The notes beneath the pieces were generated by a model that ran no database searches, was not told the DNA's origin, and saw only the letters and a program-made list of their open reading frames with translations. The position numbers and the translations under genes were made by a program. DNA of 64,000 nucleotides from the NCBI RefSeq assembly GCF_038025025.1, contig NW_027117348.1, positions 868,001 through 932,000 on the forward strand, given 5' to 3'. The DNA comes from Phyllosticta citribraziliensis. Lineage: Eukaryota. Below, one piece after another: positions 1 to 45,664 of this stretch (its first letter is position 1; each line of letters begins with the position of its first letter).

Positions 1-1074
1 AAACTAGGTTATTAATCTATATCTATAACTATATATTAGCTATTTCTAGGATAATTAGGTAGAAAGACTCCTAGTATTAGACTTTATATAAGTAATACTC
101 CTATATAAATCTATAGATATATCCCCCTATAAGTTAATCTTTAGCTACTAGCCTAGCTTCCTATTTAATTAGGAGAAATATACTATATATCTAGAGCCTA
201 TAAAGAAACTATCTTATATTACTATATAGAAGTTTACTAGATATATATAGGAAACTATATAGTAGGCTAAATAATAACTAGGTCTTACCTAGGAATAAAT
301 AGTATAAGCTATAAACTAATTCTAATAGGAACTAGACTTTAAGGAAGGTAATAAGGTATATATCTCTATATAGGGTATAAGTACTAATAGGCCTAGTACT
401 AAACTTAATATTTAGAATTAAGGACCCTACTATATCTATAAGAAAAAGGGATACTCTTATAAGCTAGAACTCCTAGTATATACTAGAGTTATAAACCTCT
501 TCTATATACACTACTTATAGAAGGCTTATTCCCCTTTACTAGGCTAGGTTTCTATTCTTAAACCTTTAATTATCTACTAGAACTAAGAAGAGTATAAAGT
601 TAACTTTATATATAATAGTAAGGTAGAATAAGGTACCCTAAAGTACTAAGTATAATAAAAAGAATATAATTAAGATAATATATAGTATAAGGCCTTAGAT
701 ATAGTTAGTATCTCTAATTAAATTAAGAAGTACTATACTAAATTTCCTAAGATACTAGGACTACTAAAGTACTTATAAGACTAGAAAGATATAATAGTAT
801 ATAAGCTAGATTATAAAGGTACTATAAAGAATAATAAGCCTACTCTCTAAGTAGCTAACTAAAACTAAACCCTCTAATACTACTAGAAAATATAGGATAC
901 CCTCTAGAAAAACCTATTATATACTAAGAAAACAGATTATTAAGGCTCCCCCTCCTATAAACCCTCTACCTTAGACTAATAGATAAGGGCCTTAGCCTAA
1001 AGCTAATTACCTAGACTATATAGTAGTAGAGATATACCTTAATAATCTATAAAAGTATTATTACTAAAACTATC

Positions 1075-2622
1075 TACTAGGGAACTATAAGGGGTAATAG
1101 GACTATATATAATCTAGGTATAGATATAGGTATAGGGGGGTACTATAGGAATAGGTAATAGTAATAATAATAAGGATAAAGAGGATATCTTAAGACTAGA
1201 AACCTATAGTAGTATAGTAGTAAAAGAACTAGAAATAGATAAAGAAGCTATATATACTAGATTAAATAGACTAGTATTACTACTATTAGATTTATTAGAT
1301 AAAGAGGATATATTAGATAAAAAAGAAGGGCTAGACTTTCTAGATAAGAAAGAAGGACTTAGTTTATTAGAAGGGATATATTTACTAGGTATAGGTAAGG
1401 ATAAAGAAGAATAGGCTATTAAGAGAATTATAGAAACTATATAACTAAAAACTCTTATAGGTATATATAGAATTATTACCTTCTATTCTAGAAGGGTAGT
1501 ATTACTAGATAAAGAGGTAATAAAAGTAGGACTAGTAGAGATAGTAGAAATAGTAGAAGTAGAATTAATAAATAGAATATCTAGTATATAGATAGATAAA
1601 GGTATATTATTAAAAGGATTAATAGGGCTAGTCTTAGTCTCCTTAGAAGAAGAAGTATTAGTATCTAGTATAGGCTTATCCTTTAAAAATAGACTACTAA
1701 GACTAGTTATAAAGTTATCTAGATAATTAGGGACCTTATCTAAGGGATTATACTAGCTATTATAAATATAGTTATCTATATTATATATACTATAAGAGAA
1801 AGTACTATTATCCTACTTATAATTACTATAGTTACTACTAAAGAAACTAGGAATCTAGTAATAACTAATAAATAGATAATAGATACTATTAGATAGCTTA
1901 GTATATATATAGTACTTATAATTAGTACTCTATAGAATACTAATAAATTAGATAGCTATAATAGAGACCTAAGAATAATAATAATATAGGTTATCTATTA
2001 AAATTAAAGGGATAGTAAAGATACTAGTATAGCTATAAGATAAGAATAAAAGCTCTTTATATATATTATAGACTATATTACTATTAAGAGACTATAATAC
2101 TATTAGTATAAGAGCTAGAGATTAAGGAAAGCTAGATTATTTACTCTACTTAAGATAATCTAAACCTTAGCTAAGTATAAGATATATATACTACCCTTAT
2201 TAAATCCTTAAGGCCTAGGTAAAGGTAGATCTAGAGGATCCCTATTAGAACCCTTAGAACTAGGCTCTTCCTTATCCCTCTCTTCTTATATAGGTAAAGG
2301 ATAATAATAATAATAATAAAGATAATAAGGTAAAGGTAAATAGTTAGAAGGACTAATAATAACACTAGTAGAATTATATTTATATAGATAATAGGAAGGA
2401 CTAATACTAGGACTAGAATACTTAGACTAATAGGTCTAAGGATAATAGTAAATAGTAGAAGAGATACTATTAGAGAGAGTAATACTATTATATAGTATAA
2501 TATATATAGATATAGTAATAGAATATATAGGAGTATATATAGGACTAATAGTACTAGGATAATAATTAGGAGTAGGTATTAATAGATATAAAGGTATAGA
2601 TTCTAAAGAGCTATTAAAGAAT
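1075..2622 (-). pseudogene. RIP-inactivated antisense spliced ORF in element E with a DUF3716-like Cys-rich domain
   Basis: Minus strand: an Arg/Ser/Pro-rich then acidic frame (2622-2145), a phase-0 intron 2144-2092 (GTAAAT...TACTAAT...TAG), then a frame whose 1980-1786 part de-RIPs to AIQFVG...CxxC...PFVGCRRIPGFFGGNCGNCKWDD...CS, followed by a Ser/Pro-rich tail. Both ends approximate. Confidence 0.7.
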
Positions 2623-3126
2623 CTATTATTATTAGCTATATAAGTTATTAGTATTAAATACCTAAATCTTAAGGGTAAGGCTTTACTTACCTAGTAAACT
2701 ATTATTTATATTATTAGACTAACTAGAACTACTAGAACCTATAGAATAATTAATTAAGGTAAAGCTAGTTATAATAAAGGCCTTAGATTATTAGTTAATT
2801 AAGGCTATATTATAGGCTAAGGGTAAACTTACTAAAGAAGATAAGAGGTAGGGTATAATAAGTATAGTAATAAAGATTAGAGCTAGAGGTAGGAGTAGAA
2901 AGTCTTTATACTAGACTTATACTTATTAGTATAGTTATAGGTATACCTACTAGAGTACCTATTCTAGTATTATAGATATATAGAAGCTTTAAGATAACTA
3001 ACTCCCTATATAGAGCTAAATACTTAAGCCTAATCTATATCTATTAAGGTACTAAGATATAATATCTAGATAATAAAACTACTCTTACCTATAGGTATAC
3101 CTTAGGCTAAACCTAGAGGGGGATAA

Positions 3127-3717
3127 TATTATAGATTAGCTAAAAACCTATAATTATATTAATTAAATACTACTTAGTATTAAGTACTAGGTATACCTAT
3201 ACTATAATTACTAGTTATAACTATAAGCTATATATACTAAAATTATCTAACTCTCTAAGAGCTATAGCTACTTAGATAATTTAACCCTAATACCTATAGA
3301 TATAATACTAATATAATAATAGAAATAAGAATAGAGCCTCCTATACCTATAGTAGAGACTTAACTAAGTAGTTAGTTTTAAGAAGTATATTACTACTAAT
3401 AAGCTAGTAAACTACTATATAATATAGGATTAAGATAAGGTCTTATTCTCTTATAGTATCTACCTTCCTTCTATTATAATTCCTAAGGTAAGTCTAGTAA
3501 TAGAATATAAAAGGACCTTATTATATAGATACTATAGATAGCTATATTTATTTTCTTATAATTAATACTCCTAAATAGACTTACTACTAATTTAACTTTT
3601 ACCTTATTTATATACCCTTCTTACTTAGCTTTATCTCCTATACTTATATACCTTAGTATTAGATAAATAGTTACTTAGAACTAGCCTACTAATTAGGTAA
3701 CCTATTAGATTATAATA
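3127..3717 (+). repeat. 3' LTR of element E (591 bp)
   Basis: Follows the PPT. Aligns end to end with the reverse complement of 4097-4683 (4-bp indel; differences mostly transitions). Confidence 0.9.
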
Positions 3718-3729
3718 CTATATAGAACT

Positions 3730-3882
3730 ACTAGGATAGCTATCCTTATCTCTTATAGTCTTAGACTTAAGAGGGATATTAAACTAAATAAATAAATAAA
3801 TAAATACTAGGATAGCTATTATTATCTCTTCTAGTCTTAGACTTAAGAGGGATATTAAACTAAATAAAAAATAAAAATAAAT
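3730..3882 (+). repeat. Two tandem ~76-bp units ending in (TAAA)n; possible LINE 3' ends
   Basis: ACTAGGATAGCTAT...GACTTAAGAGGGATATTAAACTAAATAAA occurs twice (3730-3805, 3806-3882). LINE origin is inferred only from the A-rich tail. Confidence 0.7.
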
Positions 3883-4096
3883 ACCTTTCTCTATAAGGGG
3901 AATAGCCTTAGCTAGGGCTATAGGCTACTAACTTAGATCTTAATAGGTCTATATAGTAAAGTAAGGTTATATAAAACCCCTAGTACTAATAAAACTCTAT
4001 AAATAAGATTTTATCTATTATCTAGTATGTTAAATATACTATTATTACTTAATTTAACCCCTTATAGTACTAACTTTTATACTAGTATAGGATAAC

Positions 4097-4683
4097 TATT
4101 ACAAGCTAATAGGTTACCTAATTAGTAGGCTAGTTCTAAGTAACTATTTATCTAATACTAAGGTATATAAGTATAGGAGATAAAGCTAAGTAAGAAGGGT
4201 ATATAAATAAGGTAAAAGTTAAATTAATAGTAAGTCTACTTAGGAGTATTAATTATAAGAAAATAAATATAGCTATCTATAGTATCTATATAATAAGGTC
4301 CTTTTATATTCTATTACTAGACTTACCTTAGGAATTATAGTAGAAGGAAGGTAGGTATTATAAGAGAATAGGACCTTATCTTAATCCTATATTATATAGT
4401 AGTTTACTAGCTTATTAGTAGTAATATACTTCTTAAAACTAACTACTTAGTTAAGTCCCTACTATAGGTATAGGAGGTTCTATTCTTATTTCTATTATTA
4501 TATTAGCATTATATATATAAGTACTAGGGTTAAATTATCTAAGTAGCTATAGCTCTTAGAGAGTCAGGTGACTTTAGTATTTATGGCTTATAGTTATAGC
4601 TAGTAGTTATAGTGTAGGTGCGCCTGGCGCTTAATACCAAGTAGCGTTTAATATAATCATGGGTTTTTAGCTAACCCGTGACA
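4097..4683 (-). mobile_element. Inverted E-family LTR (587 bp), probably solo
   Basis: Reverse complement starts TGTCACGGGTTAGCTAAAAACC and matches 3127-3717. No adjacent PPT. Flanks ATAAC and (T)ATAGC are only an imperfect TSD. Confidence 0.88.
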
Positions 4684-5649: not shown

Positions 5650-6516
5650 TAGAAAATACCCCCTTACCCCCTTATAGGTATCTAGGGGGACCCCCTAACC
5701 CTAGAATTAAACTAGATAACCTAGAGATAGTTAATACTATCCCTATTAACTCCTCTAAACTTAAAACTACCCTTAGATTTACCCCTAATTTAGCTAAGAC
5801 CTTTAATTTTAGCCCTCCTATAGTAGGCTAGAAATAGCCTAGCTAAGAGTAGATTACTAGTTAAATAAATAGAATTAGGCCTAATACCCTAATCTTTTAT
5901 AAGATAATTAATTTAGCTAGGTCCCTATTTATTAAAGCTATAGATCTTACCCCTACCTATTCTAACTAATTAAAGGTCCTAGATTTTATAGGACTATTTA
6001 GAGAACCCTTAGAGACTAGTAGTACTAAGATAGTAAGCTCTATACTATCTAGAAGTATTATAGATATTAAAAGAGTAGTTAAAATATTTAGAAATAAGGT
6101 AAATTCCCTAAATAAGTAAAATATATAAAATATACCTTTATAACTAGCTAGTTTTAAACCCTCCTAAGCACCTTCCTAGAATTTAAAAATTTATAAAAAT
6201 TTAGAATAAATTCCTATTAATAAGCTAACTACTATACCTAGCTAGGTTAGTATAATCTAATCTAGGAATCTAAAATATTTAAAAGAATTTACCTTATTAA
6301 CTAAGAAATCTAAGAATATATAAAATATAGCTTTAAATAGGTATAATATAGCTCCTAATATAGGTCTATTAAATTAGGAGATATATAAATAAAAGAATTC
6401 CCCTAATAGGAGACTAGTACTAGTACTCTAGGTAGTAATTTTTAGACTCCCTACCTCTAAGGAAATAAGGGATAAATTTAATAAAGAATTTATAACTAAG
6501 GGATATACTAAGCTAG
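5650..6516 (+). mobile_element. Probable RIP'd LINE (Tad1-like) ORF1 fragment, cut off by the D' LTR
   Basis: Low-stop frame (one shift) de-RIPs to ARSLFIKA..QSKVLDF..LFRE, SWASV, RRLVLVL, EMRDKFNKEF..KG. This resembles fungal LINE ORF1 proteins as I recall them. Confidence 0.5.
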
Positions 6517-9125
6517 TATTATATATCTACGCGCCTTTATTTAGTACCTAGCGCGCTCGGGGTAGCGGCCCCGGCCTAGGTAGGGGCCCTAGCCTACATA
6601 GTTAGCCCCTAGCCCCGGCTAGGGTAGTTAGACTAATTAATATATATTTAGCTTACGTGCCTATCTATAGGACAAGTTATAAAGTAGTAGCTAAAAGTTA
6701 ATAATATCCTTATTATAAAACCTAGTTATCCTCCTATATATAAAATACTAGTTTTTCTATTAATTACTATTATTCTAATACTTCCTAGGGCTAATCTTCT
6801 AGTATCTAATATAGAATATTAGTAATATAAATCATAGGGCCTATATCCCTATAGCTAGTAGGGTATTTAGTTATATAGTTAATATTAGTATTATACTATT
6901 ATTAATTATTAAGGAGCTTATTAAGTAGGTTATTCTATACCTTAGAGTTAATATTATTATTAGTAGGTAGGATATAGATATACTAGATATTAATATTATA
7001 GTTATCTTAGAAAGTCTAGGGTAGTAGTCTATATATAACTATAGAAGCCACCTATACTACTATGCTATTACTAATATGAAGATCCCCTTCTTTATATTAT
7101 GCGCTGATTTTATTATAAAGCTCCTAGCTATTATAGATAGTAGTTTTAATACCCTCCTTACTACTATATATAAGTTCTCTAAAGTAATCCTACTTACCCT
7201 AGGGCTAGAAACCTAGACTACTAGGTAATAGGTATTAGTCTAGTTTAAGGACCTATATAGTTATAGCTAGGGCTTACCTAGTATATTAATCTTAGACTAA
7301 GATATAAAATAGCCATCTAAATTTATTATATAGGTTTTTATAATACTAAAGGTATAATTCTATAGTACTATAGTATATTACCTATAGGCTAATAGGTAGT
7401 TAGAATATACTAACTAGATAGTAGAATATATAATATATTATTTTATATTTACTAATCCTAATTAGGCTTAGGTAGATGTACTTCCCTATATATAGGGGAT
7501 AATAAATATATCCTATAATATATCTACTAGGTATATACTATATAAGATTCTATATAGTTTAACCTATAGACTACTATATTTAGTAATCTTAAGAGTATAA
7601 GGGAGGTTAATATAAATATACTATATACCTAGTACTAGGTAGAAGCCTAGGAAGCCTTAGCTTTTACTACTATTACCTAGAAAGAGTACTAAAACTCCTA
7701 CTATAAGCTAGTTTAATTTAAGGTTGGAGATAAGGCATTCTTATACTTATATTTTAGGTATAAGGTTTATAGTAACCTACTAAAAAAGCTATAACCCCTA
7801 AGAATAGGGCCTTACTAAGTAAAAGTAACTATAGGCCCCCTAGTATATAAGCTTAACCTAGAATTAATAAAAGTCTACCCTATTATATTAGTTAGCTAAC
7901 TTAAATATAATTCTAATAATAGCCCTTATAGTTACTAAGTGCTACTAGATCCTATACCTATTATAAATATTAATAACCTAGCCCTAGAGTATAAAATTAA
8001 AACCTTACTAGACTATTAATAAAACTCCTTTATAAAGTAGCTCTAGTACTTAGTTAAATAGAGGGGCTATAGCCCTTAATACTAAGTCTAGTATAATATT
8101 AATAACCTTAAGAATACTATAGATCTTATTAAGGAGTATAATAAAAGGCTTAGGACTAGTACCACCCTATATTTAGTAAGAAGATAACTATTATATATAC
8201 TAAAGCTACTAGTATATACTATAGTTATATACCCTACTAAAGACTATACCCTAGCCAATAGTAAAGATACTACTAAGTTATAGGGTAGCTATTAAACCTG
8301 TTTCTAGGCTAGATACTCTAGCCCTTTAGTAGTTATCCCTCCTATATAAGGGCCGTTAGCCTATACTATTAGTAAATATAGTATAGTATAGTTAGTATTA
8401 GTATTCCTATCCTTTCTTATTTTCTATTATTATTTTATATTGCTATTTATAAAGGAATAGTCGCTTTACTTAATAAGGGGAATAATAGTTTCCTTTATTT
8501 AATAGGGTAAATAGTGTAGATAAATAATAAAGAATAATAGAGTTATAAGGCAGTTTCTTTATTTTATTCCCTTATTTAGAGAGGTGTAGGGAGTAAATAA
8601 GTAATATAGAGGGATAGATAGGTTTTCCTAAGCTAGTTATTTTAATTTAGGACTATTTAAAGCTTAGTACCTACTAACCCTAGAACTACTATTTTAGTAT
8701 ATAGCTAATCTTTACTATACTATTAACCTACCCTTATAACTAGTATACTATCTAACTTATATTATATACTATCCTTTATACTATACCCCTAAAAAAGAAG
8801 GGTGCCCTAAGTATATTAGCTAGTACCTTAATAGCTAAGGGTACTACTACCTAGTACTTTACCTACTTAACTAAAGCTAATAAGCCTAACCTACTTAATA
8901 TAGTACCTTACTATATTATAAAGCTAAAGAAAGGTACTAAAAGTAGTAGTATAGGCTTACCCCTAGTTATACTAACTAAACCTAAGGCTATTATACTAAA
9001 GACTATAGTTATACCCCTAGAAACCCTAGGAAGTATATCTTTACTTTAGTACCTAGTAGAAGTACTAACTACTACTAAGTAGAGTACACCTATAAGTAGC
9101 TTACCTACTATTACTAAGTAATCCT
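6517..9125 (+). mobile_element. Element D': rearranged, internally deleted D-family copy (5' LTR 6517-6681, inverted 3' segment ~6698-7077, integrase/chromodomain region ~7078-9125)
   Basis: 165-bp LTR matches 32718-32882 and has the same following AAGTAGTAGCTAAAAG. ~6698-7077 is the reverse complement of ~44248-44628. ~7078-9125 aligns with ~40311-42340, including YLVK(W)RGY at ~8047-8070. Confidence 0.88.
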
Positions 9126-12100
9126 AGTATGGCACTGCTAGTCGGCACTATTTTTATAGCTCTAGAAGGTTATTTTTAGTATTATTATTCCTATTCCCAA
9201 CGGCAATCTTAGCTCTAATATAAGTAGGAGATTAGGCTGGCATAATAATAGGATAATAGATAGCTCTAGAATCTTAGAAATTTATAGTTCTATACAGTTT
9301 AGTAGTAACTATAATAGCTAATAAAAGTATAGGTAAACTTAGCATCTTTAGTAGTAATAGGAGGTCTTATATTATTAGTATTTTTAGTAGTAGATTAGCT
9401 AGTTATATACCCCCTTTTATAGCTGCTTATAGAGAGAGACTACTTATATAAAGGAAGTCTTTTATACCTAGTTAAACTATTATCTACTAAATACTTAGTT
9501 ATTTATTTATTTATACTTATTATTTATACCTAAGTCTTATACTACTTAGATAATGAAATAATAGCTAGTTAGTAGCTTATTTTAGTTAGTTTAGTAGTTA
9601 TTTTAATCCTATCCTATAGAGCCTACTTATTTACTACTAGTTACTATCTCTTATACCTCTTCTAGTACTAGTATTTTAGCTAGCTAAGTAAGTATATTAG
9701 TAAGTAGCTAATCCTACCTATATTTTATAGTATAGCTTCTATAGATTAGGAGCTTCTTATTACCTAATTATATAGATATAGGATATTAGTAGAAATTAGG
9801 TAAGTAAAAGGCTATAGGATATTACTAACTAGTACTATTAATTTTACTCTCCCCTACCTAGCCTATTATTATATATTTACTATACTAGTTACTATTACTA
9901 TACTTACTATTATTTACTTATTTATCTAGAATATTACTTTATAGATGCTATATAAGCTATAAGATTAATATTTATAATTATATAGTAGGTTAGTATATAA
10001 TTTAAAGAATAATAATACTATACTATCTAATTTTAATTAGCTCTATTTTTATTAAGTATAATATTATTCTAGGTATCTCTACCTATAAGGTATAGGAGAC
10101 TAGCCTAGGTAATTAGTTCTCTAGTTTTTCTATAATTATTTTATAGATATTAGACTATTAAGGTCTAATAAGTTTCTAGGACTATTCTATTATACTATAA
10201 GGTTAGTAGTTTATATAATAAGTTATAAAAGTAGATTTAGATATAATTATATAATAAATTTAATAACTAAGCTATAAGAACTATAAGTACTTCTAGTAGC
10301 TTAGGTAGAAATAGATAAGGAGGAAGAGGTATATTAGGAGAAGGATAAAGAAGAAGAATAGGGTCTTATAGTAGTAGTTACTCTCTAAGAGACTAATAGT
10401 AGGGGCCTATAATTATATATAGAGGACTATTAATAATAGTCCTATTACTAGGAACTAGTTTATAGGCTCCCTTATAAGGTATAGGGCTAGCTCTAGTACT
10501 ATTTAGGCTATTCTTAGGATTAGGAGTACCTCCTATAATTATACTACTATTAGGGATAGATTATAATAAAATAATATAGCTAAGCTAAGCTAATTAGCTA
10601 ATACTAGATACTATAGAAATAACTCTCCCCTAGACTAGTAGAGAGTTATTATTACTAATAGAAGCTAACTAATACTATATAAGAATAGCTTCCCTACTTT
10701 AGATAATCCTAATAAGCTAGATACTAGTACTAAAGTAAAGACTATAGTTTAAGGGGGATAATATATTATTATTCCTTAAGATATATAAGTACTTTTATAC
10801 TATAGCTAGGAGTCTCTTAGAAGAGTTTATACTAAAACTAGTCTAGTACTATAAAACCCTAATTAGCCTAGAAATTTACTATATTATAGAGTTTAAGACT
10901 AGAGATTAGGAAAGTCTAAAGGTTTAGATACTAGTATACTATAAGAATTAGGATATTAGTATAATTAGTAGGAACTAAAGCTATATTAAGAACTTAGCTA
11001 AGAGGTATAAGGACCTTTATTACTCTTCTAAAGTAGATAAGTTCTTTAGGCTTTACTAGATACTTAGTAATAAGGTAGTAGAAGAAGGATATATTAATAA
11101 AAGCCTATAAGAGATATAGTTCCTTAATACCCTATATATAGATATATAAACTAGGGTCTTATATAAGGGGTACTTATTCTATAGGGCTAGGAATATTTAG
11201 TATCTCTAGTTATATATTAAGGCCTAGCTAGAATATAAATAGTATATAGCCTTATATACTATAGACTTACTAGAGGTTATAAATATAGTTATATACTATA
11301 TTAAGAGATTAGACTATATTATAGACCCTATACTAGTAGGAAGAGGATACCTTTCTAGGTCCCCTCTACTACTTATAGTATTATCCTTAGATAGCTCTTC
11401 CTCTATAACTATAGCTTTAAATAGATAATTAACCTCTAAGACTAGGACCCCTTTAGTAAAGAGTAATAATACTATAGTTAAGGACCTAGTAGATAAGCTA
11501 GTTAAGATATATATTAAATTAATCTAGGAAGCTACTAGCTATATCTATAAATAGCTTATAGATAGTAAGAAGTATAGATATATTATAAATAATAGGGACC
11601 TATATATAAGGGTTATCTAATTATTATTTCCTTATAATAGCTCTATTAGAATAGGCTAGCTAATAGGGTAGTATATACTATTACTAAGATAATATACTCT
11701 ATAGGTAGGTCCTAATCTTCTATTAATAAGGCTACTACTACCTAGGATAGCTCCTATAGGCTAATTATAATATAATCCTAACTCCTATAACTAGGCTAGA
11801 CCTCCTAGTTTAAATATAAACTAGAGTATAGAGATAGGAGAATACTAGAGTTATAATAAGATAGGCTATATAGTTAGGAGTTATTCTATTCTATTACTAT
11901 TTATATATACTAGTCTTATATCTATTAGTTAAAATAGGTGTATCTAAGACGTTAATAGCTAGCTAATATTAACTTATAAGAGGAATAAATAGCTAGATAT
12001 TAAGAAGTACTTATAATATTAGGGATAGATAAATAATAATAATTTACTAAAAGGACTACTAGTACTAGAATATTAAATAACTCCCTACTAGACTAAGGGA

Positions 12101-15100
12101 GAGTTATTATTCTTATCTATAATAAATAAAGAGCTATAGGGATATTAGCCCCTATTATAAATTAATACTAGATATAATATACCTTTAGACTATAGCTAAT
12201 ATAACTAAGATTAATATAACTAGGACTATAGCTAGTATACTTAGATTAACTATATATAGGCTAATATAGAGGATAGCTAGCCTTACTTCTATTAAATTTA
12301 CTATTATAATAAAGGGATAATATATAGTATATACTATTTTAAGATAGAAGTTCCTCTTAGAAATAGAATCTTTATAAATCTAATAAAGATTATAAAATAT
12401 ATAAGGAAACTAAAGAAGCTAGCTAGATAATAGGGAGCTAAAATCCTATAAGCTATAATTAATAAAATAGTAATTAATAAATAGGTTAGGAATATAGCTA
12501 AGTAGGTAAAAACTAATAAAACTAGGAATATATCTAATAAGGATATCCTAGGTATAATCCTACTAGTAAATATACCTTAGTAGCTAAGATAACTAGCTAT
12601 TATTAGTCTATTAGATAGTAATATTAAAGAGCCTATAGTCTCTAGTAAAGAGCCTACCTAAGAGCCTAATTTAGATAAACTATAAAGAGTAACTATAGAG
12701 GATACTAATAAGGATATATCTAATATTAAAGAAATCCTATAAAATAAGCTAAGTATTATACTTAAGGGATTAGAGAATAATAAGCTAGAGCTACTTAGTA
12801 AAGGGGCCCCCCCTAAGTAGTACTAGGTTAAAACTATTATATTTAGAGACCTATTCTATTATAAATAGTATAAACTAGGACTAAATAGCTAGAGATATAG
12901 AGATATCTTTAATAAGGAGACTATTAGGTATATAAAGGGAATCCTTAGCTAATATAATAATATATAGAAGTTATTTTATACTCCTATTAGTACTAAGATT
13001 ATAGAAGAGGTCTAGGAAATATTTTATAATAATCTATAGGTACTAAATAAGTACCTATATATAATAGATAACCTATAGAAGCTAATATATACTATATATA
13101 TAGAACTAGTTAATAATATTAAAGGGTACTAGTTTAACTCTTCTAATAAGCCTATAGAGTTTAACTTCTCCTAGTATTACCTATTTAAGTAAGAAGATTA
13201 TTTCCTAGATAGGATCTTTATATATTTAAATATACTAACTAATATATTAGTAGCTAAAGGTAAAACTATCTTTAGAATTTTTAACTATATATATATAAGC
13301 CTAGTATTATATATAAGCCTAGTATATACTATAAAGTATATACCTATATAAAGCTTTATTTTATATAGGCCTAATAGTAAGCCCCTATAGGATAGTAAGC
13401 CTATAGACTTATTAATATGTAAGATATACTTTAGTATTAAATTACTAAAGGGATAAAAGGATTCTATAACTATTAATAGAGATAGTAAGCTAAAGCTAAT
13501 AACCTATAAGGAAGTTATATTACTAGTTAAATAGTAGGGCCTTATTATCTACTATATTCTATTATCCTTTATCCTAGTATCCTTTAGTAGCTATATAGTA
13601 TAAGTACTAGTAGATACTAGAGTAAATATAAATAGTATTTCTAAAGTTCTTATAGCTAAATTTAATATCCTAGTATAGAATATACTATCTAATAGATTTA
13701 ATATAACTATAGGATTTATTAATAGTTTAAAGTATAAAATTAAATAATAGGTCCTAAGTTTAGCTATTTAAATAGGAGATTAGTCCTAGAGTACTTATTT
13801 CCTAGTATATAACTAAACTACTATCCCTATTATACTAGGAATACCCTAGATTATCTTAGTAGGTAGTAAATTTAAAACTATACCTACTAGAGTAGTTAAG
13901 CTAAGATTTACCTACCCTATTAATCCTTACTACTATATAGAAATTATTACCTACTAGGTATTCCTATTTATTAAGGGTATTAAGAATACTATATACTATA
14001 TTAGTCTAGTTAGAATCTAAAGTAGTAATTATATATAGGTAGTAAGTAGGACTAGGAAACTAGTAGGTATAATAGTTTAGGGGCTAATTAGTATATAATT
14101 ACTATACTAACTAGTAGGAGGCCTATATAAATAAAATAAATAAAATACTAAAAATACTAATTTAGTATTAGATAATATATTTTTAACTATATATATAATA
14201 GGAGAATAGAGTATTATTTATTATAAGGTATCTTAGTATAGGATATTTCCTACCTATCTTAATACTACTAGATAATAAAACCTATACTAGTATATAGTAT
14301 ATAAATAAAAAGGTATAAAAATAGAGCCTATAGATAACTTAATACTATAGGAGGAGTTATTAAATATAATTAAGAGGTAGAAAACTAAAGAAACTATAAT
14401 TACTAAGTAGACTACTATACTAGTAAGGGACCTTTAGGGCTAGGGATAATTTACCTACTTATTCTATCCTAGGATTACTATCTTTTAGCTAGGTATATAC
14501 CTTATATAAGAAAGGCTAGTTAGCCTTATTACTAGTAATAATCTTTAGCTAAGAGATTAGGAACTAATACTAGAAATACTATATAGTAGGGAGGGAGCTA
14601 TCTTATTTAACCTTTCTAAAATAGGATAAGTTAAACTAATAGTAATATATAGGTTCCCTATTAGGATAATACTATATAAGGCCTAGAGAGTTAGAGTATT
14701 ATATATTTTATTAGCTAAAATATAATATATATTTAACTTACTTACTACTTAGTAAGATATAGGGATTATTAAATACTACTCTAGTTATTATTATAATCCC
14801 TAGATAGTCTTACCTAAGAAGAATAGTATATATAGGTAGATTAATAATCTATAAATATTAAATAATATTACTATTTAAGATACTAGTATACTAGGACTAA
14901 TAGATAACTATATAGAGTACTAAGGAGGTCTTATAATATATACCCTTATAGACCTATACTCTAGTTTTAATTAGTTTATAGTTACTAAAAAGTACTAGGA
15001 CCTTACTAGATTTATTACTCCCTAGGGATACTAGTATAACTATATACTTTCCTAAGGTATAACTAATTCTCTAGGATAAGTAGTTTATAGCCTAAGATAT

Positions 15101-16743: not shown

Positions 16744-17136
16744 TGTCACGACTTATAGAGTCCTCGTTTTATAGGTTAGGGCTAAAGGTAAACTGCTAGA
16801 GAATGTATATATATCTTAATTAAATATAATAAGTTAAAAGAATAAAATATAAAAGATACTTACTTCCTATCTATTTCCTAGCCTTCTCTTTATACCTTTC
16901 TAGCTTTCTGACCTTTATATAAGGGTTAATAGTTATTATTAGGTTATTCCTAAAGGTGAGGTATTAATAGGTAGCTATACTATATCTACCTAAGGCTATA
17001 GTAGCTAGTAGTAGCCTAAGGTGTAGCTAGTATTTAGCCTAAGGCTATAGTAGCTGGTACCTTATAACTATATAATACTAGGTTTATCTATACTAGCCTT
17101 AGTACTTATATAGGTGTATAAACGCCTATTATAATA
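16744..17136 (-). repeat. 3' LTR of element A (393 bp)
   Basis: Direct repeat of 24419-24803 with an 8-bp insertion; adjacent to the PPT. Confidence 0.95.
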
Positions 17137-17822
17137 TACCCCCCCTAAAGAGAAGCTAAAATTATAGGAATTAGTAGCTATAGGTGCTTATATAGGTATA
17201 GACTTATAATATATAGTAGTAGTATTTAGTAATTTAGGCATTCTATATAGTTATAAAGTATAATTATTAGTCTAGCTTTATTACTATACTATCTTTCTCT
17301 ATTACTACCTTCTATTACTGTATAATCTATAGAAGGTTACTATCTATCTTAGCTATATCTAGAGCTCTCTACTAAAGTATATTATTATCCTATCTAAATT
17401 AGCTATAATCTAGTAAACTAATAGTTATATAAAGGCTTAAAGGAGCTATACTCTATAGAGAGTAAAGAGGAAGGCCCTATACTAGCAGGTTAGTAGTAGC
17501 TAGTTACTTAGTAGCCTATTACTTATTAGCCTATTACTTATTAAGATTTATTACTATTATATAATACTTATTATACTATTCCATTATTATATAGTATTAC
17601 TTATAACCTATTATAGTTACTACTTACTTAAAGAGCTATCCTAGCCTATAGTATCTATTAAGACCATTATATAGAGTAGCCTTATAGTAAGTAGGCCTCT
17701 TATCTTTAAGATTATTACTAATTATTATCTAGGTTCTAGAGGACCACCCTATACCTAGGTAGCTTTATATATTCAGGTTTTACTACTTTATCATCTAATT
17801 TTACTAACTAATATAATTATAG

Positions 17823-18848
17823 AGGAGAATATTTACACTACTTACATAAATATATAGTCAGGCTAGGCTTTACTTATTTAGCCAGGACTAGTATCAGGCC
17901 TATTACTTTACTAGTACTATCTAGCAGCATTATTAGTTATTATATAAGGTTTATTATTATTAGCTATACAGCCTACTTCTAACTAGCCTGCTTTACCTAC
18001 TCTTATACTATATTATTATCACTTCACTATTATATAGCCTATCTTAGAGGAAGAAGATAAGGAGCCTATTTATATATACTATTATTATAATCCTATAGCT
18101 TATCAGGTCCTAGCAGTTAAGTACTTAGTACCTATTAGTTTATATAATAGTAATAATAGTAAGATTTATATTATAGTATTACTAGTTGGTTTTAATAAAG
18201 CACCTATTAAGTAGGACTTTAAATAGATACTTTATATTCCTTATAAGAATATAGAGAGTATTATATAAGTAAGTTTACTTTACTAATACTAGGATTTCTT
18301 AACTGACTATATAGGCTTACCTAGGTAGCTATAAAGTATAAGAGCGTACTAAATGTATTCTGGCCTTAGGAGATAGTATACCTTACTTATATATTATAAT
18401 TTCTACTTATAACTTTAACTACTTATTAATTAAAACTTATACTAGCTTATGCGATACTTTTCTTATCTAGTATACTAGAATTAATAATCCTATTAGCTAT
18501 ACTAAGTATTATAATAATACTAATACTTATATATTTATTAGTTATTATTACCTGCCTAGTTTCTTATAGGGCTACTATACTAACTACCTTTAAGGTATAG
18601 GTAATCTTAACTATACTATTAGTAACTTAAAAGGTATAAAGCTGCCTGCCTAGTATAAAAGGTATAGTAATAAGATTTATATAGGAGAGTTTCTAGGCTT
18701 ATATAACTAAGCTATACCTAATAATTAGACTAATTATACCTTAGCTAAGTAGGATAGCTTACCTAATAAGCTAGAGGAGCTAGAGGAGACTATCTTATAT
18801 AACTATAGTTATATTAAGAAGAAGGGAAAGGGAAAGGGAAAGAAGTAA
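17823..18848 (+). pseudogene. RIP-inactivated antisense spliced ORF in element A with a DUF3716-like Cys-rich domain
   Basis: Phase-0 intron 18269-18314 (GTAAGT...ACTGAC...TAG) joins two low-stop frames. 18450-18620 de-RIPs to DAFLIQRTG...CTKC...FVGCRRLPGFLQGCCANC...C. The frame ends KKKGKGKGKK-TAA at 18848. A second intron at 17777-17822 is possible, so the 5' end is unresolved. Confidence 0.72.
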
Positions 18849-21800
18849 AGTAAAGGGATAGCTAGGAATAGTCCTAAGTAGTAAAAAGGAGAGACTAGAG
18901 AGTAGAAGTTAAAGTTAATAGTATTTATATAAGGGTAGATAGTAAACTAATTAGTCTACTTTCTATATCTTTATAATATTTACTTTAGGCCTAAGTAACT
19001 TATTTTATTATTACTTTCTATTTCTATCTATAGTTCTTCTTATAGGAAGGTAGTCTTCCATTTTTCTAGGTTTTTTAGTAGTCCTACTATAGCTAGGTAA
19101 GAAGAGTAAAACTCTTTAATTTTCTATAGTATACTACTAAAAGAACTTATATTATACTACTAATTATCCTAGTTATATCTAGTCTATTAGACTTAGTATT
19201 AGAGCTTTCTATATAAGACTTAGCTAGCTTAAATATAGTCTACTTCCTACTTAGGCTTATCTTAAATAACCTCTAGTCCTAGTTTAGTATACTCTTATCC
19301 TAGAAGTTTCTCTATTAAGGCTTTATAGAGTCTATTAGCGTGAAAAAGGTTAACTATCTTTATATATAAGGGAAGATCTAGGATATAGGAGGATCCTTCT
19401 ATCTCTATAATCTTAAAAGGTCTAATATTAGGGAAGTCTAATTTAAGGGTTAGCTAATTAGTAGACCACCCTATTTTCTTAATATAAATATAATCTCTAA
19501 TTATAAAGTCTAGTATATAATAGTACTTATTAGCTTATTAGTATATATACTCCTAGGATTTAAGAATAAGATTCTTTATAAATTTAAAAGCTTCTTATCT
19601 TCTTTTTTATAGTATTTATACTACTATATAAGGTCTATTAAGGGTAGAAGGTCTAACTAGTTATTCTAGAAATAATTAATAAAAGGTCTTAGCCTTTATA
19701 TAAGGTACTAATTAATAATTTCTATAATACTATTAGTTTAAGAGTAATATAAGGAGTTAAAATACTATTTAATACTAGTAAGCTTATATAGTTTATTTAT
19801 AAATATAGAGATAAATTATAGGCCTTAGTTAGAAAGGATAGATTTAGGGTTTCTATAGATATAGTAGATATATTTATAAAAGAGTCTAGAGACTCCTTCT
19901 ATATTAATCTTCTTTATATAAGGTAAACTAAAGGTTTATTAACTTAACTAGTCTACTATAATAAGGATTATATTATAACCTTTCTAGTCCTTAGGTATCT
20001 CTTTAAAATCTATAGCTAAGTATTACTATAGTTAAGTAGGAATCTCTAGAGGTTATAAAAGGCCTAGGTCTTTATTATAGAACTCCTTTATTTAGTAGTA
20101 GATATAGTATCCCTATCTATAAATATTAATTATATAATTTATAGCTAGCTAGTAGTAATATTATTTAAAGAGTTTATATATCTTTATAATACTAGGATAG
20201 ATAGTAATATAGGTAGTATATAAGATATTAAGTATTCTTATATAGAGGTTATTATAATCTAGTATAAAGAGGGTACTATATTATAATAAAAGACTATCCT
20301 TTAGTTCCTAACTATTTCTTTATTTAAGGTCTTCTAATAGAGCTTTTTATCTCTAGGGTTCTAATTTAGAATCCTCTCTATTTATATAGAGGAGTTTATC
20401 TAAAAATAATACTAGAGGAGGAAGGTCTTATTCTAGAATAGAAAGGGGAATAATAGTTTCTAGAGGGATAAGGTATATTTCTTATATAGCTTTTACTTTT
20501 TCTTTTTAAGTCTTTAGGTCTTCTTATTTTTAAATAAGGTAATTAGTAATAATATTTTCCTTTCCTAGCTAATAGGAGAATTATATATAGAATTCTATAA
20601 AGAACTTAGACTATCTAGCTTATTATTAATTAAGTTATTATTTAGTAGAGTAGTACTCTAATACTTAGTAGTCTATAATTATAAGGAAGGGTTTTTTAAG
20701 GCTAATAAGTATTAGTCTCTATTCTTCTAGTCTATTCTTAATAGCTAGTAGTTCTTTATCTAAGATACTATAATAAAGTTCTATATTAGCTATTACCTTA
20801 GAGTAGAAAGCTACTAGTTTCTAATTATATAAAGGTTATTAGAGCTATATTAAAATACTAGTAGTAACTCTATTACTTATATTAGTCTCTATATAAGTAT
20901 CTAGAGTAGGGTTATAATTTACTAGAAGTATATTACTATATATTAGCTTCTTAAGTTATTAAATTATCTCTTCTTCTAGTAGTCCTAGTTATTACTATTT
21001 TACCTTAGAGTATAGTTTCTCTAATAGCCTACTAATTTATCTATAGTTAGGAAGAAATTATTAGTAGAAATTATAGAAACCTAGGAAGGATTAAAGAGCC
21101 TTAAGAGTCTAAGGTATTAGCTAGTTTTATATAGGTTCTACTTTATCTAGGTCTATTTAAATACCTTCTATAGATATAATATATCTAAGAAACTTTATAT
21201 AAGTAACTAAAAACTTACTCTTCTTAAGATCTACTTAGAGTCTAGCTTTTTATAGTCTTACTAGTACTTTTCTTACTTATAGTTTATATTCTATAGGGTC
21301 TTTAGAGATAATAAGTATATTATCTATAAAAGCTATAATAAAGTTATCTAAATACTTAAAGAGAACTTAGTTAACAAATTATTAAAAGGCTATAGGTCTA
21401 TTACTTAATCTAAAGGGAAGGATATAGTATTTAAATAAACTATATCTTATATAGAAAGTAGTCTTATCTTTAGAATCCTTAGTAAGATAAATATAGTAGA
21501 AAGCTTATTAAATATCTAGCTTTATATAAATCTTACCCTTTTTAATATACTAGAGTAACTTAGAAATAAGAGGAAGAGGGTATAAATCCTTAGTAGTTTA
21601 TTTATTAAGCTATTAGTAATTTATATAAAACCTCTATCTACTACTAGGCTTTTTTACTACTAGAATAGAAGAAGTAAAGATAATAAAGCTTTTAATAATA
21701 AAGCCCTTCTATATATTCTCTATAATATACTCTTTTATAGCTCTTAGCTACTTAAGAGATATTCTATAAAGAGGACTAGGAGGAAGCTCTAGTAGACCCT

Positions 21801-24418
21801 TATATATAAGAGATATTTTATAGTTAACTCCTATATAATAGGGTAGTAGCTTATTAGAATCTATTTTAGAAAATATATCTTAAAAATCCTTATAAGTAGA
21901 AGGTAGTTTAGAAGCTAATAATTCCTTAATTTCTTTATCTTTAATAGCTTATTAAACTTATATAAGGTTTATAGTATAGATCTCTATTAGTATAACTTAT
22001 ATTTTATAGATAGAAAGTTTAAAAGTATCTTAAGTTTAAAATTTAATTCTATTAATAACCTATACTAAGGGAAGAAGGTATTTATTAAAGCTTTTATCTC
22101 TATAGTCTATATCTACCTAGTATTTTTTCTATAGTATATTACTTTATATAGAAACCTTTAGTAGTTATAAAAGATATTAAAAGGATTAGTTAACTAGTAG
22201 CTATCTCTAGACTAGTTTATATTATTTATAGTTAGGAAGAATATTATACTAGTTAAAAAACTATTACCTAAGAATTATATTATTCTAGCTAATATTATAA
22301 ATAAAAGTATAAGTAGAAACTATTTAATCCTAGAAATAGAGTTATAAATAGAAGTAGAAATTAACTTTCTTATTTATATATTAGTTAAACCTAGTAATAT
22401 TAAGCCTATTACCTATTATTCTCTTTTTTATAGTACCTATAGACTAAAGAGTTAGTAGTAACTTAGGGTAGATAAAACTTATACCTCTAGTACTAGTATT
22501 AGCTAGGGTATAAATTTCTAAGGTATAGCTATTAGATATAATTAAGGTTTATATAGTAAATAGTATACCTTTAATAAAGTAACTAAGATTTATATAAGAA
22601 CCCTTAATATATACTACTCTAAATTTAGACCTAAGGTAGGAGACTTTATCTAGGCCTTATTATTTTCTAATAATAATAGTTCTTCTTTACCTATATAAAT
22701 ATCTTTAGTACTCTCTTCTTCTACTAACTCTATTACCTTTATCTCTAGTCATAGGTATTATCTCTATAGATAGCTAAACTGGCTATAATAATTATATAGT
22801 CTAATTTCTATATAGACTTTAGCTTTACTATTATAGGCTATATTATATAAAGAAGCCCTTAAGATAGATTATACCTAAGTATAGCTAGAAGATAAGGTAC
22901 TTATACTACCTAAGGTAGTAGTCTTTACTCTCTCTTACTATCTTTTCTTAGCTTATTCCTTATATAAGGTAAGTATTAGTTTTCTATAGTTAGATTAGTA
23001 ATTATTAAGACTTTAAATAATAGGATAGGCTTATTAGAGGTACTTATAAAAGTTAATATCCTTATCTTACTCTATAGTAACTATATAGGTTTAGAGGAGT
23101 AGATCTATTATATTATAAAAGTCCTCTTTCTATTATTCTTAAGGAAGGTCTATATCTAAGGCTAACTATATAAAGTTAGATTAAAACTTCTAAAGGTCTA
23201 TAGGAATATAGTATATAAGTAAGTATAACTACTTCTTTATATCCTTATACTTATATATACTCTAGAGAAGGTTATCTAGGAATTTAAAGATATCCTTATC
23301 TAGAGTAACCTTATTAGCCTTTATATAAGAAGTAAGAAAAGGAGTTAAGTATTATAAGACTTCTCTACTAATATAGGAGATAATATATCCTATAATATTC
23401 TATTTAGTCTCCTCTACTATACTTTTAGTAAAATAATTATAGTTTTATTTAATTTTATTTTAAATAAGAAGAGTCTAGTATTTATATAAGGGGTCTTCTC
23501 TATTAGTAAGAAGAGGAGGATTAGGAACCTTTTTATTTCTATATTTCTTATTAGAGGTAGAAGTAGAAGTCTTAATAGTAGTTTTCTTTATATAAATAGG
23601 AGAGGGTCTAAGAGTCCTTTATACTCTATTAGTAGAAGGATCTTATAAGAGGGTAATAGGTCTTAGGCTCTAGCCTAACTTTAAGGGCCTAATATATCCT
23701 TTCTTTAAGGCTTCCCTTAGGCTATTAGTATAATTTAAGAGTATTTACTTAAGAGCCTAGTTTTACCTTTATATATAATTTAATTACTACTATACTTAAG
23801 GCTTATTTAAGGGTATAATCTTAGACTTAAATTACTTAATTTCTAAAAGTAGTACCTTTATAAATACCTCTATAACTAGAGCTTTTATTATATAATTTAG
23901 TCCTAGGTCTTAAGTATACTCCTTTATTTCTACTAGTCTAACTATATAGAAATTATAAAGGAGAATTAGAGGAGGTCCTCTTTTATTATTATTTAATAGG
24001 AGTCTAGGGTTATATAAATCTTTAGTTCCTTTATATAAATCTTATTAAGTAGATTAACTAGTACTAATACCTTCTATAGTACTAGATATATTAGCTTTAT
24101 TCTTAGCTATACTATCTTAGTAGTCTTCTACTTAGAATATCCCTTAAGTAGGTTATAGATAGGATACCTTCTAAAGGTTTATATACTACCCTATAGCCTT
24201 AAATAAAGACTTCTATAATTAATATATACTTAATACTCCTTAGTCCTTAGATAATACTAATATACCTAATAAGGATAACTTAGGTTTACTAGGGAAAAGT
24301 AATAAGTAGTCTTATATAAGACTATAGCTATATATAATATTACTTAGGTTAAATATTATAATACCTTTATAGGTAAAGAAGTAGGATAGAGCTAATACTT
24401 AGAATAATCTTTTATATC

Positions 24419-24803
24419 TATTATAACTTATAGAATTCTTATTTTATAGGTTAGGGCTAAAGGTAAACTACTAGAGAATATCTTAATTAAATATAATAAG
24501 TTAAAAGAATAAAATATAAAAGATACTTACTTCCTATCTATTTTCTAGCCTTCTCTTTATACCTTTCTAGCTTTCTAACCTTTATATAAGGGTTAATAGT
24601 TATTATTAGGTTATTCCTAAAGGTGAGGTATTAATAGGTAGCTATACTATATCTATCTAAGGCTATAGTGGCTAGTAGTAGCCTAAGGTATAGCTAGTAT
24701 TTAGCCTAAGGCTATAGTGGCTGGTGCCTTATAACTGTGTAATACTGGGTTTATCTATACTAGCCTTAGTGCTTGTATAGGCGCGTAAACGCCTATCGTG
24801 ACA
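24419..24803 (-). repeat. 5' LTR of element A (385 bp)
   Basis: Direct repeat of 16744-17136; outer end TCGTGACA intact, followed by the TSD. Confidence 0.95.
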
Positions 24804-44700: not shown

Positions 44701-44812
44701 CCTAGTATAGGTAGGGGCCCTAGCCTATATAGTTAGCCCCTAGCCCTAGCTAGGGTAGTTAGTCTAATTAATATATATTTAGCTTATATGCCTATCTATA
44801 GGACGAGTTATA
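32718..44812 (+). mobile_element. Element D: full-length (12095 bp) RIP'd Ty3/gypsy element with chromodomain and a long extra 3' region
   Basis: 165-bp LTRs 32718-32882 and 44648-44812 with TSD CTATA (32713-32717, 44813-44817). Protease CLDTG ~37213-37227, RT YIDDI..F ~38590-38613, RNase H ~39050-39560, integrase ~40000-40900, chromodomain YLVKWRGY ~41220-41380. Confidence 0.93.
42355..44190 (+). pseudogene. Extra RIP'd sense ORF (~600 codons, unknown function) between the chromodomain and the 3' LTR of element D
   Basis: One frame runs ~1.8 kb without a shift, with a charged N-terminus and only TAA/TAG interruptions. Confidence 0.55.
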
Positions 44813-45664
44813 CTATACTATATATAGTAGTTATCTAGTATGCTATTACTAGACTAGTACTTAGGATTAGTAAATTAGTACTAAACTTTATAGCCTAGTA
44901 TATTACCCCTATTATAAATTACCTATATAAGACCTAAGACCTACTCCTAGAGCTACTAAGTTATTAGTATAGTAATAGTAGGTAGTTTATTATTATTATT
45001 ACCCTAAGGGGTAATAGGTTAGCTAGATAATAGGCTAGTAGTTATAGACTACTAGCTGGCTATTAGTATTATTTAAGGAGTGGCTAATAGTACTATACTA
45101 TTAGTAGACTAGTTACTCTTAGCTATTATATAGGTTATTAACTATATAATATAATAAGATGTTATATCTCTATTACTAATAGGACTATCTTAGTCTAGAA
45201 TCTTACTTATATACCTTATCTAAGGCTATAGACTATAAAAATAATAATACCTAGTACTTCTAGTATATCTAAAACCGTAGTATTTTGACCTAATACCTTA
45301 TAGGACATGATTAAAGTAAGATAACTTATTAGTAAGGGATAGATAATAAGTCTTATCCTCTTATAAGTAGTAAGAGACCTATTAATAGTATTATAGCGCC
45401 TAGTAGAGTGAATTAATACTAACTACTAATAATTAATAGGTAAGGAGTAAGAGTAGTCGCTATATAGCCTATATAGAATAACTATCTACTCTCTAGCTAA
45501 CTAGAAACGGCTAGTATATATAGAAAAAAAAATAAATACTAAGTACTAGACACTATAAAATATAACCTGCGCGCGCCGCGTCGTGTAATAGTATATATAT
45601 AAGTAGTAAATACTAAGTGCTAAATACTATAAAATATAAACTATATATACTATAGCGCGTAATA

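Follow-up and report, generated by a model that had tools for sequence, protein, structure and literature searches.

A RIP-degraded antisense gene with a putative DUF3716 domain in two related Ty3/gypsy-type retrotransposons of Phyllosticta citribraziliensis

Two retrotransposons with a gene opposite to pol

The stretch of Phyllosticta citribraziliensis DNA analysed here (64,000 nucleotides, hereafter the window) carries two long terminal repeat (LTR) retrotransposons, E and A, and in each of them the interval from pol to the 3' LTR holds a degraded gene that runs antisense to pol; the anatomy of this gene, its predicted DUF3716-like domain and its origin are the subject of this study. Both elements belong to an AT-rich block (positions 1-49000, 25% GC with a range of 23-31%, against 52-64% GC in the remainder of the window past 49000) with dinucleotide ratios of 1.6-1.8 for TpA/ApT and 0.01-0.22 for (CpA+TpG)/(ApC+GpT), the values for the block being 1.8 and 0.04 and those for the GC-rich flank 0.51 and 1.24. 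Repeat-induced point mutation (RIP) is recognised by values well above 0.89 for the former ratio and well below 1.03 for the latter, and the AT block, lying beyond both thresholds, bears the signature of this fungal process.

Element E is a plus-strand LTR retrotransposon cut off by the start of the window, since its pol tail (251-838), polypurine tract and LTR all read on the plus strand (Table 1). Element A is a complete minus-strand element of 8060 bp, as judged from its LTR pair, the TGTCACG...CGTGACA ends and the target duplication GTTAT at 24808-24804 and 16743-16739. Self-comparison of the AT block gave for these regions a direct repeat of 379 bp (16751-17129 / 24426-24796, 92.6% identical) and an inverted repeat of 582 bp (3136-3717 / 4674-4097, 93% identical). 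As the first-pass annotation of this DNA had stated, the LTRs of E and A differ in length (591 versus 385/393 bp) and share the first bases TGTCACG, which are preserved in the less mutated copy of each LTR type. The second, inverted E-type LTR is a solo LTR or a piece of another element; its flanks, CTATA and GTTAT, form no target duplication. The two E-type LTRs, 3127-3717 (+) and 4683-4097 (-), face each other and produce a near-palindrome of 1.5 kb, and within its 379-bp spacer a unit of about 70 bp is tandemly duplicated.

The pol tail of E is 37% identical over 185 amino acids to the minus strand of A at 19558-19004 (blastp of stop-masked translations, E=4e-13), and a comparison of the integrase C-terminal regions with a RIP-aware model (described below) gave 107.1 bits. 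In A, the stop-masked translation of 21747-20485 (-) matched the Pfam families RVT_1 (56.5 bits), RT_RNaseH (40.3) and RT_RNaseH_2 (40.1), an assignment to Ty3/gypsy by reverse transcriptase (RT) and ribonuclease H (RNase H) that applies to A only, the RT of E being outside the window. SH3_Tf2-1 scored 18.8 bits in E (E=0.0018) and 20.6 bits in A (19594-19004, minus strand), both under the Pfam cut-off of 30 bits; Chromo gave no score, and the chromodomain-like stretch at the integrase C-terminus was seen by eye only in the translations of E and A, so that support for the label "chromovirus" is limited. Taken together, E and A are probably RIP-killed copies of two related Ty3/gypsy, chromovirus-like LTR retrotransposon families.

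The minus strand of E reads ...IIAI*FISIL*STNYKYYIYTKLSNSIYYLFISYY*IPSFFSSNYSNYK*DNSTFSYS... (asterisks are stop codons), and the translation quoted for it in the first-pass annotation is present letter for letter. A search with HMMER of 1.84 billion representative proteins using the stop-masked last exon of E found a single match, an uncharacterised NCBI protein of Phyllosticta citribraziliensis from locus J3D65DRAFT_606018 on a 1.66-Mb contig, hereafter P0002 (333 amino acids, E=7.8e-22, 54% identity). P0002 is collinear with the minus strand of E from its first residue to its last: the codon matched by residue 122 runs to 2145 and the one matched by residue 123 begins at 2091, making the protein contiguous exactly across the intron 2144-2092, and its C-terminus coincides with the TAG of E at 1206-1204. 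From this collinearity, and from the frame change between 2692 and 2639, the gene is predicted to extend from 2772 to 1204 in three exons of about 490 codons, with an additional intron at 2690-2636. The gene had initially been placed at 1075..2622; a gene does lie there, with other limits and one intron more. Stop and Tyr codons of E correspond to Trp and Cys in P0002, as in EVWAALSR of P0002 against AKV*IILSR of E, which matches the prediction for RIP. P0002 supports the frame and the predicted splice sites; it says nothing on expression or actual splicing.

In E the gene (2772-1204, minus strand) lies between the pol tail, which runs to 838, and the polypurine tract and LTR starting at 3115 and 3127; in A it occupies about 17.7-18.9 kb, between the pol tail (19004) and the 3' LTR (17136), inside the LTR pair. 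Pol is on the plus strand in E and on the minus strand in A, and the common place and antisense orientation already reported for the two genes are therefore borne out. The same is true of the phase-0 intron of E at 2144-2092, confirmed by direct reading as well as by P0002, and of the position of the IQ site, now read as I*, which is the 47th codon past the intron in E and the 51st in A.

Stop-density mapping was rejected as a marker of coding in the AT block, because stops are frequent there even in genuine pol frames (6-10 per 100 codons), whereas in the E region both strands are poor in stops (9 in 316 codons in the frame of the gene, 6 in 210 codons on the opposite strand). In word-indexed protein searches P0002 retrieved only itself among 8000 scored candidates, its residues 36-178 only themselves among 95 candidates, and the stop-masked exon of A gave no match among 46 candidates; in metagenomes, 404 stretches matched a pattern from P0002 and none was a relative. 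Among sequencing runs, three DNA runs from two studies matched in part, no RNA run being listed. The four runs examined gave only scattered contig pieces, of which one of 494 nt over 2391-2680 showed 41 differences, chiefly A>G and T>C, and at one joint 181 nt are skipped; no contig piece from these runs covered the cysteine core, and none covered either intron as RNA. The Ser-rich tail of E had its top RIP-aware match at 12304-12858 (-), in a stop-poor frame (43.1, with a shuffle maximum of 42.4), which may be low-complexity similarity only.

Table 1. Features of elements E and A, matches of protein P0002 and a third pol remnant (positions in the window)
Feature	Position	Strand	Basis or remark
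E pol 3' end: integrase C-terminal SH3-like part and chromodomain-like stretch	251-838	+	5' part of E outside the window
E antisense gene, last exon: linker, DUF3716-like domain, Ser/Pro-rich tail, TAG at 1206-1204	1204-2091	-	P0002 match
E RIP-degraded DUF3716-like domain (putative)	1786-1962	-	C- and N-terminal profile blocks
E intron 2, 53 nt, phase 0 (predicted)	2092-2144	-	GTAAAT..ACTAAT..TATAG; the intron first annotated; read directly, P0002 contiguous across
E antisense gene, middle exon	2145-2635	-	P0002 amino acids 27-63 (E=7e-12) and 77-122 (E=2e-6) align
E intron 1, 55 nt, phase 1 (predicted)	2636-2690	-	GTAAGT..ACTAAT..TATAG; frame change along P0002 match
E antisense gene, first exon	2691-2772	-	start codon now ATA; P0002 amino acids 1-27 against 2772-2692, 67% identity
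P0002 amino acids 1-27	2772-2692	-	collinear match to E
P0002 amino acids 27-76	2639-2490	-	collinear match to E
P0002 amino acids 77-122	last 46 codons before 2145	-	collinear match to E
P0002 amino acids 129-169	2073-1951	-	collinear match to E
P0002 amino acids 170-333	1743-1207	-	collinear match to E
E polypurine tract	3115-3126	+	agagggggataa, immediately 5' of 3' LTR
E 3' LTR, 591 bp	3127-3717	+	ends are RIP-mutated TGTCACG...CGTGACA
Second E-type LTR, inverted	4683-4097	-	starts TGTCACG; 93% identical to 3127-3717
Element A, complete, 8060 bp	16744-24803	-	LTR pair and 5-bp target duplication
A 5' LTR, 385 bp	24803-24419	-	92.6% identical to 3' LTR
A 3' LTR, 393 bp	17136-16744	-	TGTCACG...CGTGACA ends
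A antisense gene, candidate phase-1 intron before upstream exon	17687-17732	+	signals read by eye
A antisense gene, upstream exon	17733-18268	+	RIP-aware match to E exon 2
A antisense gene, intron, 46 nt, phase 0 (predicted)	18269-18314	+	GTAAGT..ACTGAC..TATAG; frame change in translation
A antisense gene, domain-bearing exon	18315-18905	+	translation; 3' limit provisional
A RIP-degraded DUF3716-like domain (putative)	18456-18620	+	C- and N-terminal profile blocks
Third gypsy-type pol	29298-30560	-	36% identity to A over 426 amino acids, E=1.4e-35; RT_RNaseH_2 50.2 bits

Identity of the cysteine-rich domain

Read in RIP-compatible form, the motif common to E and A is F-x2-C-x4-[GS]-F-x2-G-x-C-x-N-C, and the domain of E extends to Q-x2-G-x6-C-x2-C ... 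(P)F-x2-C-x8-G-x-C-x-N-C-x8-C-S. When the shared motif was used as a degenerate DNA pattern, 31 metagenome loci were recovered, and 16 match sites carry features that lie outside the pattern, namely a Pro before the Phe, an upstream CxxC and C-[STV]-[LFY] eight residues past CxNC. Fifteen of the 20 translations submitted to Pfam were PF12511 (DUF3716), with 26-61 bits against a gathering score of 22 bits, and the remaining five, random-looking, matched no family; ten further pattern matches, short and stop-ridden, were left out of the submission. The motif shared by E and A thus appears to be specific to the DUF3716 family. From 12 unique Pfam-verified blocks we defined a C-terminal signature of fixed spacing, PF-x2-C-x8-G-x-C-x-N-C-x8-C-[STV]-[LFY], the motifs of this family being described in Pfam as "PFxxC and CxNC".

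In RIP-compatible form this signature has only two matches in 49.5 kb (both strands), at E and at A, a result reached in none of 200 shuffles. The final Cys eight residues past CxNC, which was not in the search pattern, is present in both elements, and A has Ile where the family has Pro. A profile of the N-terminal block x4-Q-x2-G-x6-C-x2-C, independent of the search pattern, picked out in frame, in both genes, the IQ...CxxC site of the first-pass annotation: at position 1962 in E (10.1 bits, rank 50 of 98,894, p=0.021 as the best of 43 offsets) and at position 18456 in A (12.8 bits, rank 10 of 98,894, p=0.0046 on the same basis). The C-terminal profile, built from the 12 unique 30-residue blocks, ranked E first (32.4 bits) and A second (18.6 bits) of 98,822 AT-block positions, ranks that are partly circular because the pattern columns had been picked from E and A with DUF3716 in mind; on the 22 held-out columns of this block E ranked 15 of 98,822 (2e-4). 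The DUF3716-like domain claimed for both genes by the first-pass annotation is thus upheld by two profile blocks and by a RIP-compatible motif found at E and A only.

Besides this circularity, several results weigh against the reading of the two genes as DUF3716 carriers. On the held-out C-terminal columns A ranked only 6,920 of 98,822 (0.07), and with an empirical codon background the values for these columns fell to 0.009 for E and 0.11 for A. Pfam found no family at E<=10 in the stop-masked readings of the E and A genes, whereas in A, which is mutated to the same degree, RT and RNase H still score. P0002 is a computed gene model in which the cysteine core is skipped, with no Pfam match, and may itself be a mis-annotated, partly RIP-mutated dead copy of the passenger gene; its model in the ESM Atlas is of very low confidence (predicted local distance difference test, pLDDT, 0.31), and there it had no usable feature match and only structure matches with a template modelling (TM) score <0.3. 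Base composition explains part of the scarcity of stops in the E frame. Moreover, the metagenome DUF3716 genes are ordinary host genes and not transposon-borne: among nine such loci with neighbours that were scanned, none had an RT or integrase alongside, and the neighbours, where any scored, were WD40, HET, amidohydrolase and ABC genes.

The DUF3716 domain comprises 59 profile positions, and its invariant residues are nearly all Cys and Gly, the codons of which are rewritten by RIP; for this reason the present sequence of E and A is not a scoring member of PF12511. The two genes are therefore better described as putative RIP-degraded relics of DUF3716 genes than as current members of the family. 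For the real domain, an AlphaFold2 model from a 12-sequence alignment reached a mean pLDDT of 59 and a predicted TM score (pTM) of 0.44, too poor for a fold search. On one metagenome contig (Ga0164242_10002874, our locus L027) two tandem DUF3716 paralogues, at 3461-4297 and 5861-6736, lie 2.4 kb apart, which shows that the family has been duplicated locally in a host genome.

Kinship of the two genes and rival readings

Homology between the genes of E and A was assessed with the RIP-aware model, a 64x64 codon log-odds matrix in which an ancestral C or G becomes T or A with probability 0.75. Searched in six frames against the remaining 45 kb, the 97-codon core of E had its top match on the plus strand of A, ending at 18657, with a score of 33.0, the maxima of 30 shuffles over the 45 kb having a mean of 24.1 (standard deviation 2.3) and a highest value of 29.6. 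Against the syntenic 1.9 kb of A this score was reached by none of 1000 codon shuffles (highest 29.9) and by none of 1000 real segments of the AT block (highest 32.8). An alignment beyond chance, which had been set beforehand as one test of the proposal that the two genes are related, was thus obtained. When the exons were compared separately, the domain-bearing exons scored 33.0 against a null of 15.4 +/- 2.3 (0 of 300 shuffles reaching the score) and the upstream exons, E exon 2 against A, 27.3 against 18.4 +/- 2.7 (4 of 300). The two blocks of similarity, upstream exon and core, are in collinear order.

The intron sites can be compared on this basis. The distance from the exon junction to the core block is 71 codons in E and in A, and the phase is the same. 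A forward-backward calculation between a GFNK anchor and the core placed the junction of E after codon 28 of A with a posterior of 0.52 and after codons 27-29 with about 0.6, the junction of A itself being after codon 27; the remaining posterior (about 0.4) was scattered 4-7 codons off. An agreement of the two sites to about one codon is accordingly the most probable reading of the alignment, and the matching intron position that had been proposed holds for phase and spacing, a coincidence to within one codon being somewhat better than an even call. Pairwise alignment with loose gap penalties was messy and unreliable and was discarded.

The anatomy and place of the gene, its homology in E and A and its DUF3716 character together form a structural account that we hold with good confidence. 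The account as a whole, in which the mechanism set out in the last section is included, is the best explanation and a probable one. That RIP-saturated, strand-skewed DNA simply yields extended frames with few stops and much Tyr, Ser, Ile and Phe, open to being "de-RIPped" to nearly any cysteine motif, is suggested by the open opposite strand of E and the stop-rich true pol frames, which make openness no evidence of coding, and by the blank Pfam result on both gene readings; this reading is contradicted by the P0002 match, by the two occurrences of the RIP-compatible motif, both at the predicted places, and by the independent N-terminal block, in frame and with family spacing in both elements, as well as by the conserved last Cys, and we regard it as extremely improbable. 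It is only slightly less improbable that the stretch is foreign to the retrotransposons, being another nested mobile element or host DNA present by chance in both copies. DUF3716 genes do travel on other elements, two of them being described on the class II transposon REP9 of Zymoseptoria (PMC8232023), and the interior of E is present in a single copy in the window. However, the segment recurs with identical place and orientation in two families that have pol tails only 37% identical (as read from stop-masked, RIP-mutated DNA), self-comparison shows no terminal repeats or duplications around it, and it is enclosed in A by the LTRs and the target duplication and followed in E by the polypurine tract and LTR.

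A more serious rival, in our view still unlikely, is that the lineages of A and E each captured a different host DUF3716 paralogue, the shared place and orientation reflecting the sole site at which an intron-bearing passenger can survive. Within the 30-codon block of the domain, the transition-collapsed identity of held-out codons between E and A (0.71) is barely above that between E and the host gene L004 (0.70) or A and the host gene L013 (0.68), so that inside the domain the two appear hardly closer to each other than to host genes; the interval from pol to the 3' LTR is described as the commonest site of additional open reading frames (ORFs) in plant elements (PMC7264820), which makes convergence plausible; and the ambiguous alignment from the GFNK anchor to the domain leaves the posterior of about 0.4 mentioned above for intron sites more than one codon apart. 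Against two captures stand the collinear similarity of the upstream exons, beyond the limits of the domain, the equal intron phase and the equal distance of 71 codons from intron to core, an intron that is not found at that distance in host genes with a long ORF upstream of the domain (e.g. L013, 171 amino acids, and L015, 416 amino acids). In addition, the integrase C-terminal regions of A and E are close (107 bits), and the third gypsy-type copy of the window, probably the element called C in the first-pass annotation, gave nothing above noise in this comparison, which makes a single ancestral acquisition the simpler account. No DUF3716 signal was found near this third copy, in agreement with the earlier description of C, and neither profile block had a third match above noise in the AT block. 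One inherited module is thus favoured, not proven: the similarity of the upstream exons, the architecture and the closeness of the integrases point to the inheritance initially proposed, and the identity within the domain does not.

Known systems, possible function and other repeats

An antisense gene at this place has precedents. Boty-like gypsy elements of Botrytis and Sclerotinia are described as carrying, in antisense, the gene brtn in the interval from pol to the 3' LTR (Zhao et al. 2011, Virology 417:248; PMC7264820, PMC8365987, PMC4227169), and Boty, like E and A, is a fungal gypsy element, reported with a chromodomain (PMC4227169), having an additional antisense gene in that position. 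The hosts of Boty given in these sources are Leotiomycetes, whereas the present host is a Dothideomycete in which the copies of E and A are RIP-dead, and the likeness between brtn and the genes described here is one of position and orientation, compared by description and not by sequence. The text supplements of PMC8365987 contain none of the terms "DUF3716", "brtn", "additional ORF" or "DUF", figure S1, an image, not being covered by this text search. The plant LTR retrotransposons Grande1, RIRE2, Retand and PvRetro13 are likewise described with antisense additional ORFs between pol and the 3' LTR (PMC7264820); these share position and orientation with the genes of E and A, are conserved within families and, as here, have no known function, but they belong to plant hosts and in part to non-chromoviral elements (Retand), no sequence relation to them is claimed, and for E and A the domain is named and the introns are mapped.

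DUF3716 itself is reported on a mobile element of another Dothideomycete: REP9, an IS3EU-type class II transposon of Zymoseptoria tritici, has DUF3716 in REP9-1 and REP9-2, and expression of REP9-1 affected the formation of pycnidia (PMC8232023). E and A resemble REP9 in having a DUF3716 protein as a passenger, and differ in that REP9 is a DNA transposon, to which the logic of an antisense gene with introns does not apply, and not a retroelement. Host DUF3716 genes (the 15 from metagenomes, PSC58 and NCU05718) share with E and A the motif and exact spacing Q-x2-G-x6-C-x2-C ... PF-x2-C-x8-G-x-C-x-N-C-x8-C, present in the latter in RIP-compatible form, but are chromosomal and lie outside retroelements. 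Nothing in the literature searched for DUF3716 or PF12511 concerned LTR retrotransposons. Since an antisense gene at this place (Boty, 2011) and DUF3716 on a class II transposon were already known, the idea of the first-pass annotation is less new than was assumed; what is added here is the proposed domain identity and the intron structure of the antisense passenger.

To our knowledge, passenger genes are seldom retained by retrotransposons. A passenger in antisense and with introns would be a sign of long-term retention, as only that arrangement survives reverse transcription, and the passenger can now be named as DUF3716, a domain found in fungi and without known function. The RIP-aware codon model also recovers a domain identity from DNA that reads as noise in ordinary profile searches. 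As both copies are dead, the value of E and A is in the link between passenger and DUF3716 and not in a new principle.

Both families probably carried, between pol and the 3' LTR, a convergent antisense gene interrupted by spliceosomal introns, and we postulate that a promoter of its own, situated between pol and LTR, drove its transcription in the direction opposite to that of the genomic RNA. Splicing would then take its introns out of the antisense mRNA alone, and the sense-strand RNA, which serves as the template of reverse transcription, would always retain them, an antisense gene being on this account the only arrangement that lets a retroelement keep introns over many cycles. In the predicted product, of about 490 amino acids, a single cysteine-rich DUF3716 domain is accompanied by Ser/Pro-rich regions that are probably disordered, and the presence of the gene in two families with pol tails 37% identical in the RIP-mutated reading speaks for long retention and hence for a use to the element. 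The product may have acted in trans as an accessory factor of the element that binds nucleic acids in a zinc-dependent manner and takes part in regulation, targeting or counter-silencing.

The suggestion of DNA binding comes from PSC58 of F. graminearum, which is reported to have DUF3716 and to be orthologous to NCU05718 of N. crassa (PMC10776026), a protein described as binding double-stranded TTAGGG directly with no annotated DNA-binding domain (PMC4650311). This chain of literature statements is a point against the functional part of the account, as DNA binding is assigned in it to the whole protein and not to DUF3716 itself, and a DNA-binding accessory role of the product is, by this analogy, possible but rather doubtful. 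The telomeric-DNA-binding relative and the occurrence of DUF3716 on a class II transposon nevertheless turn such a role into a testable hypothesis for additional ORFs that have so far been unexplained. It might even be supposed, as a conjecture that is more likely wrong than right by a wide measure, that DUF3716 is a transposon-associated zinc-dependent DNA-binding module, repeatedly recruited by unrelated fungal elements (Ty3/gypsy here, class II in REP9) and kept for long as an antisense, intron-protected gene for targeting or counter-silencing, that many host DUF3716 genes, telomere-repeat binders possibly among them, were exchanged with or domesticated from such elements, and that brtn of Boty may be the same gene.

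The AT block also holds other repeats. The integrase core of the third gypsy-type copy ends near 28418, and a gypsy-type RT/RNase H remnant near 38998 (+) has left as its only trace a 55-bit RIP-aware match. Two long repeat pairs from other families of the AT block are 89-90% identical, one direct and 2.0 kb long (7067-9130 / 40300-42348) and one inverted and 1.3 kb long (9458-10792 / 46959-45659). A stretch of about 180 bp occurs three times, at 6517-6698, 32718-32899 and 44648-44829, with 82-86% identity; the first copy, which was the one read, holds a GC-rich island (gcgc..ggggtagcggccccggcc...) amid RIP-saturated DNA that seems to have been spared by RIP, perhaps because it is without CpA. 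Past the AT block, the GC-rich part of the window codes for ordinary eukaryotic genes, including those for a kinesin, Utp13, a proteasome subunit and a WD40 protein.

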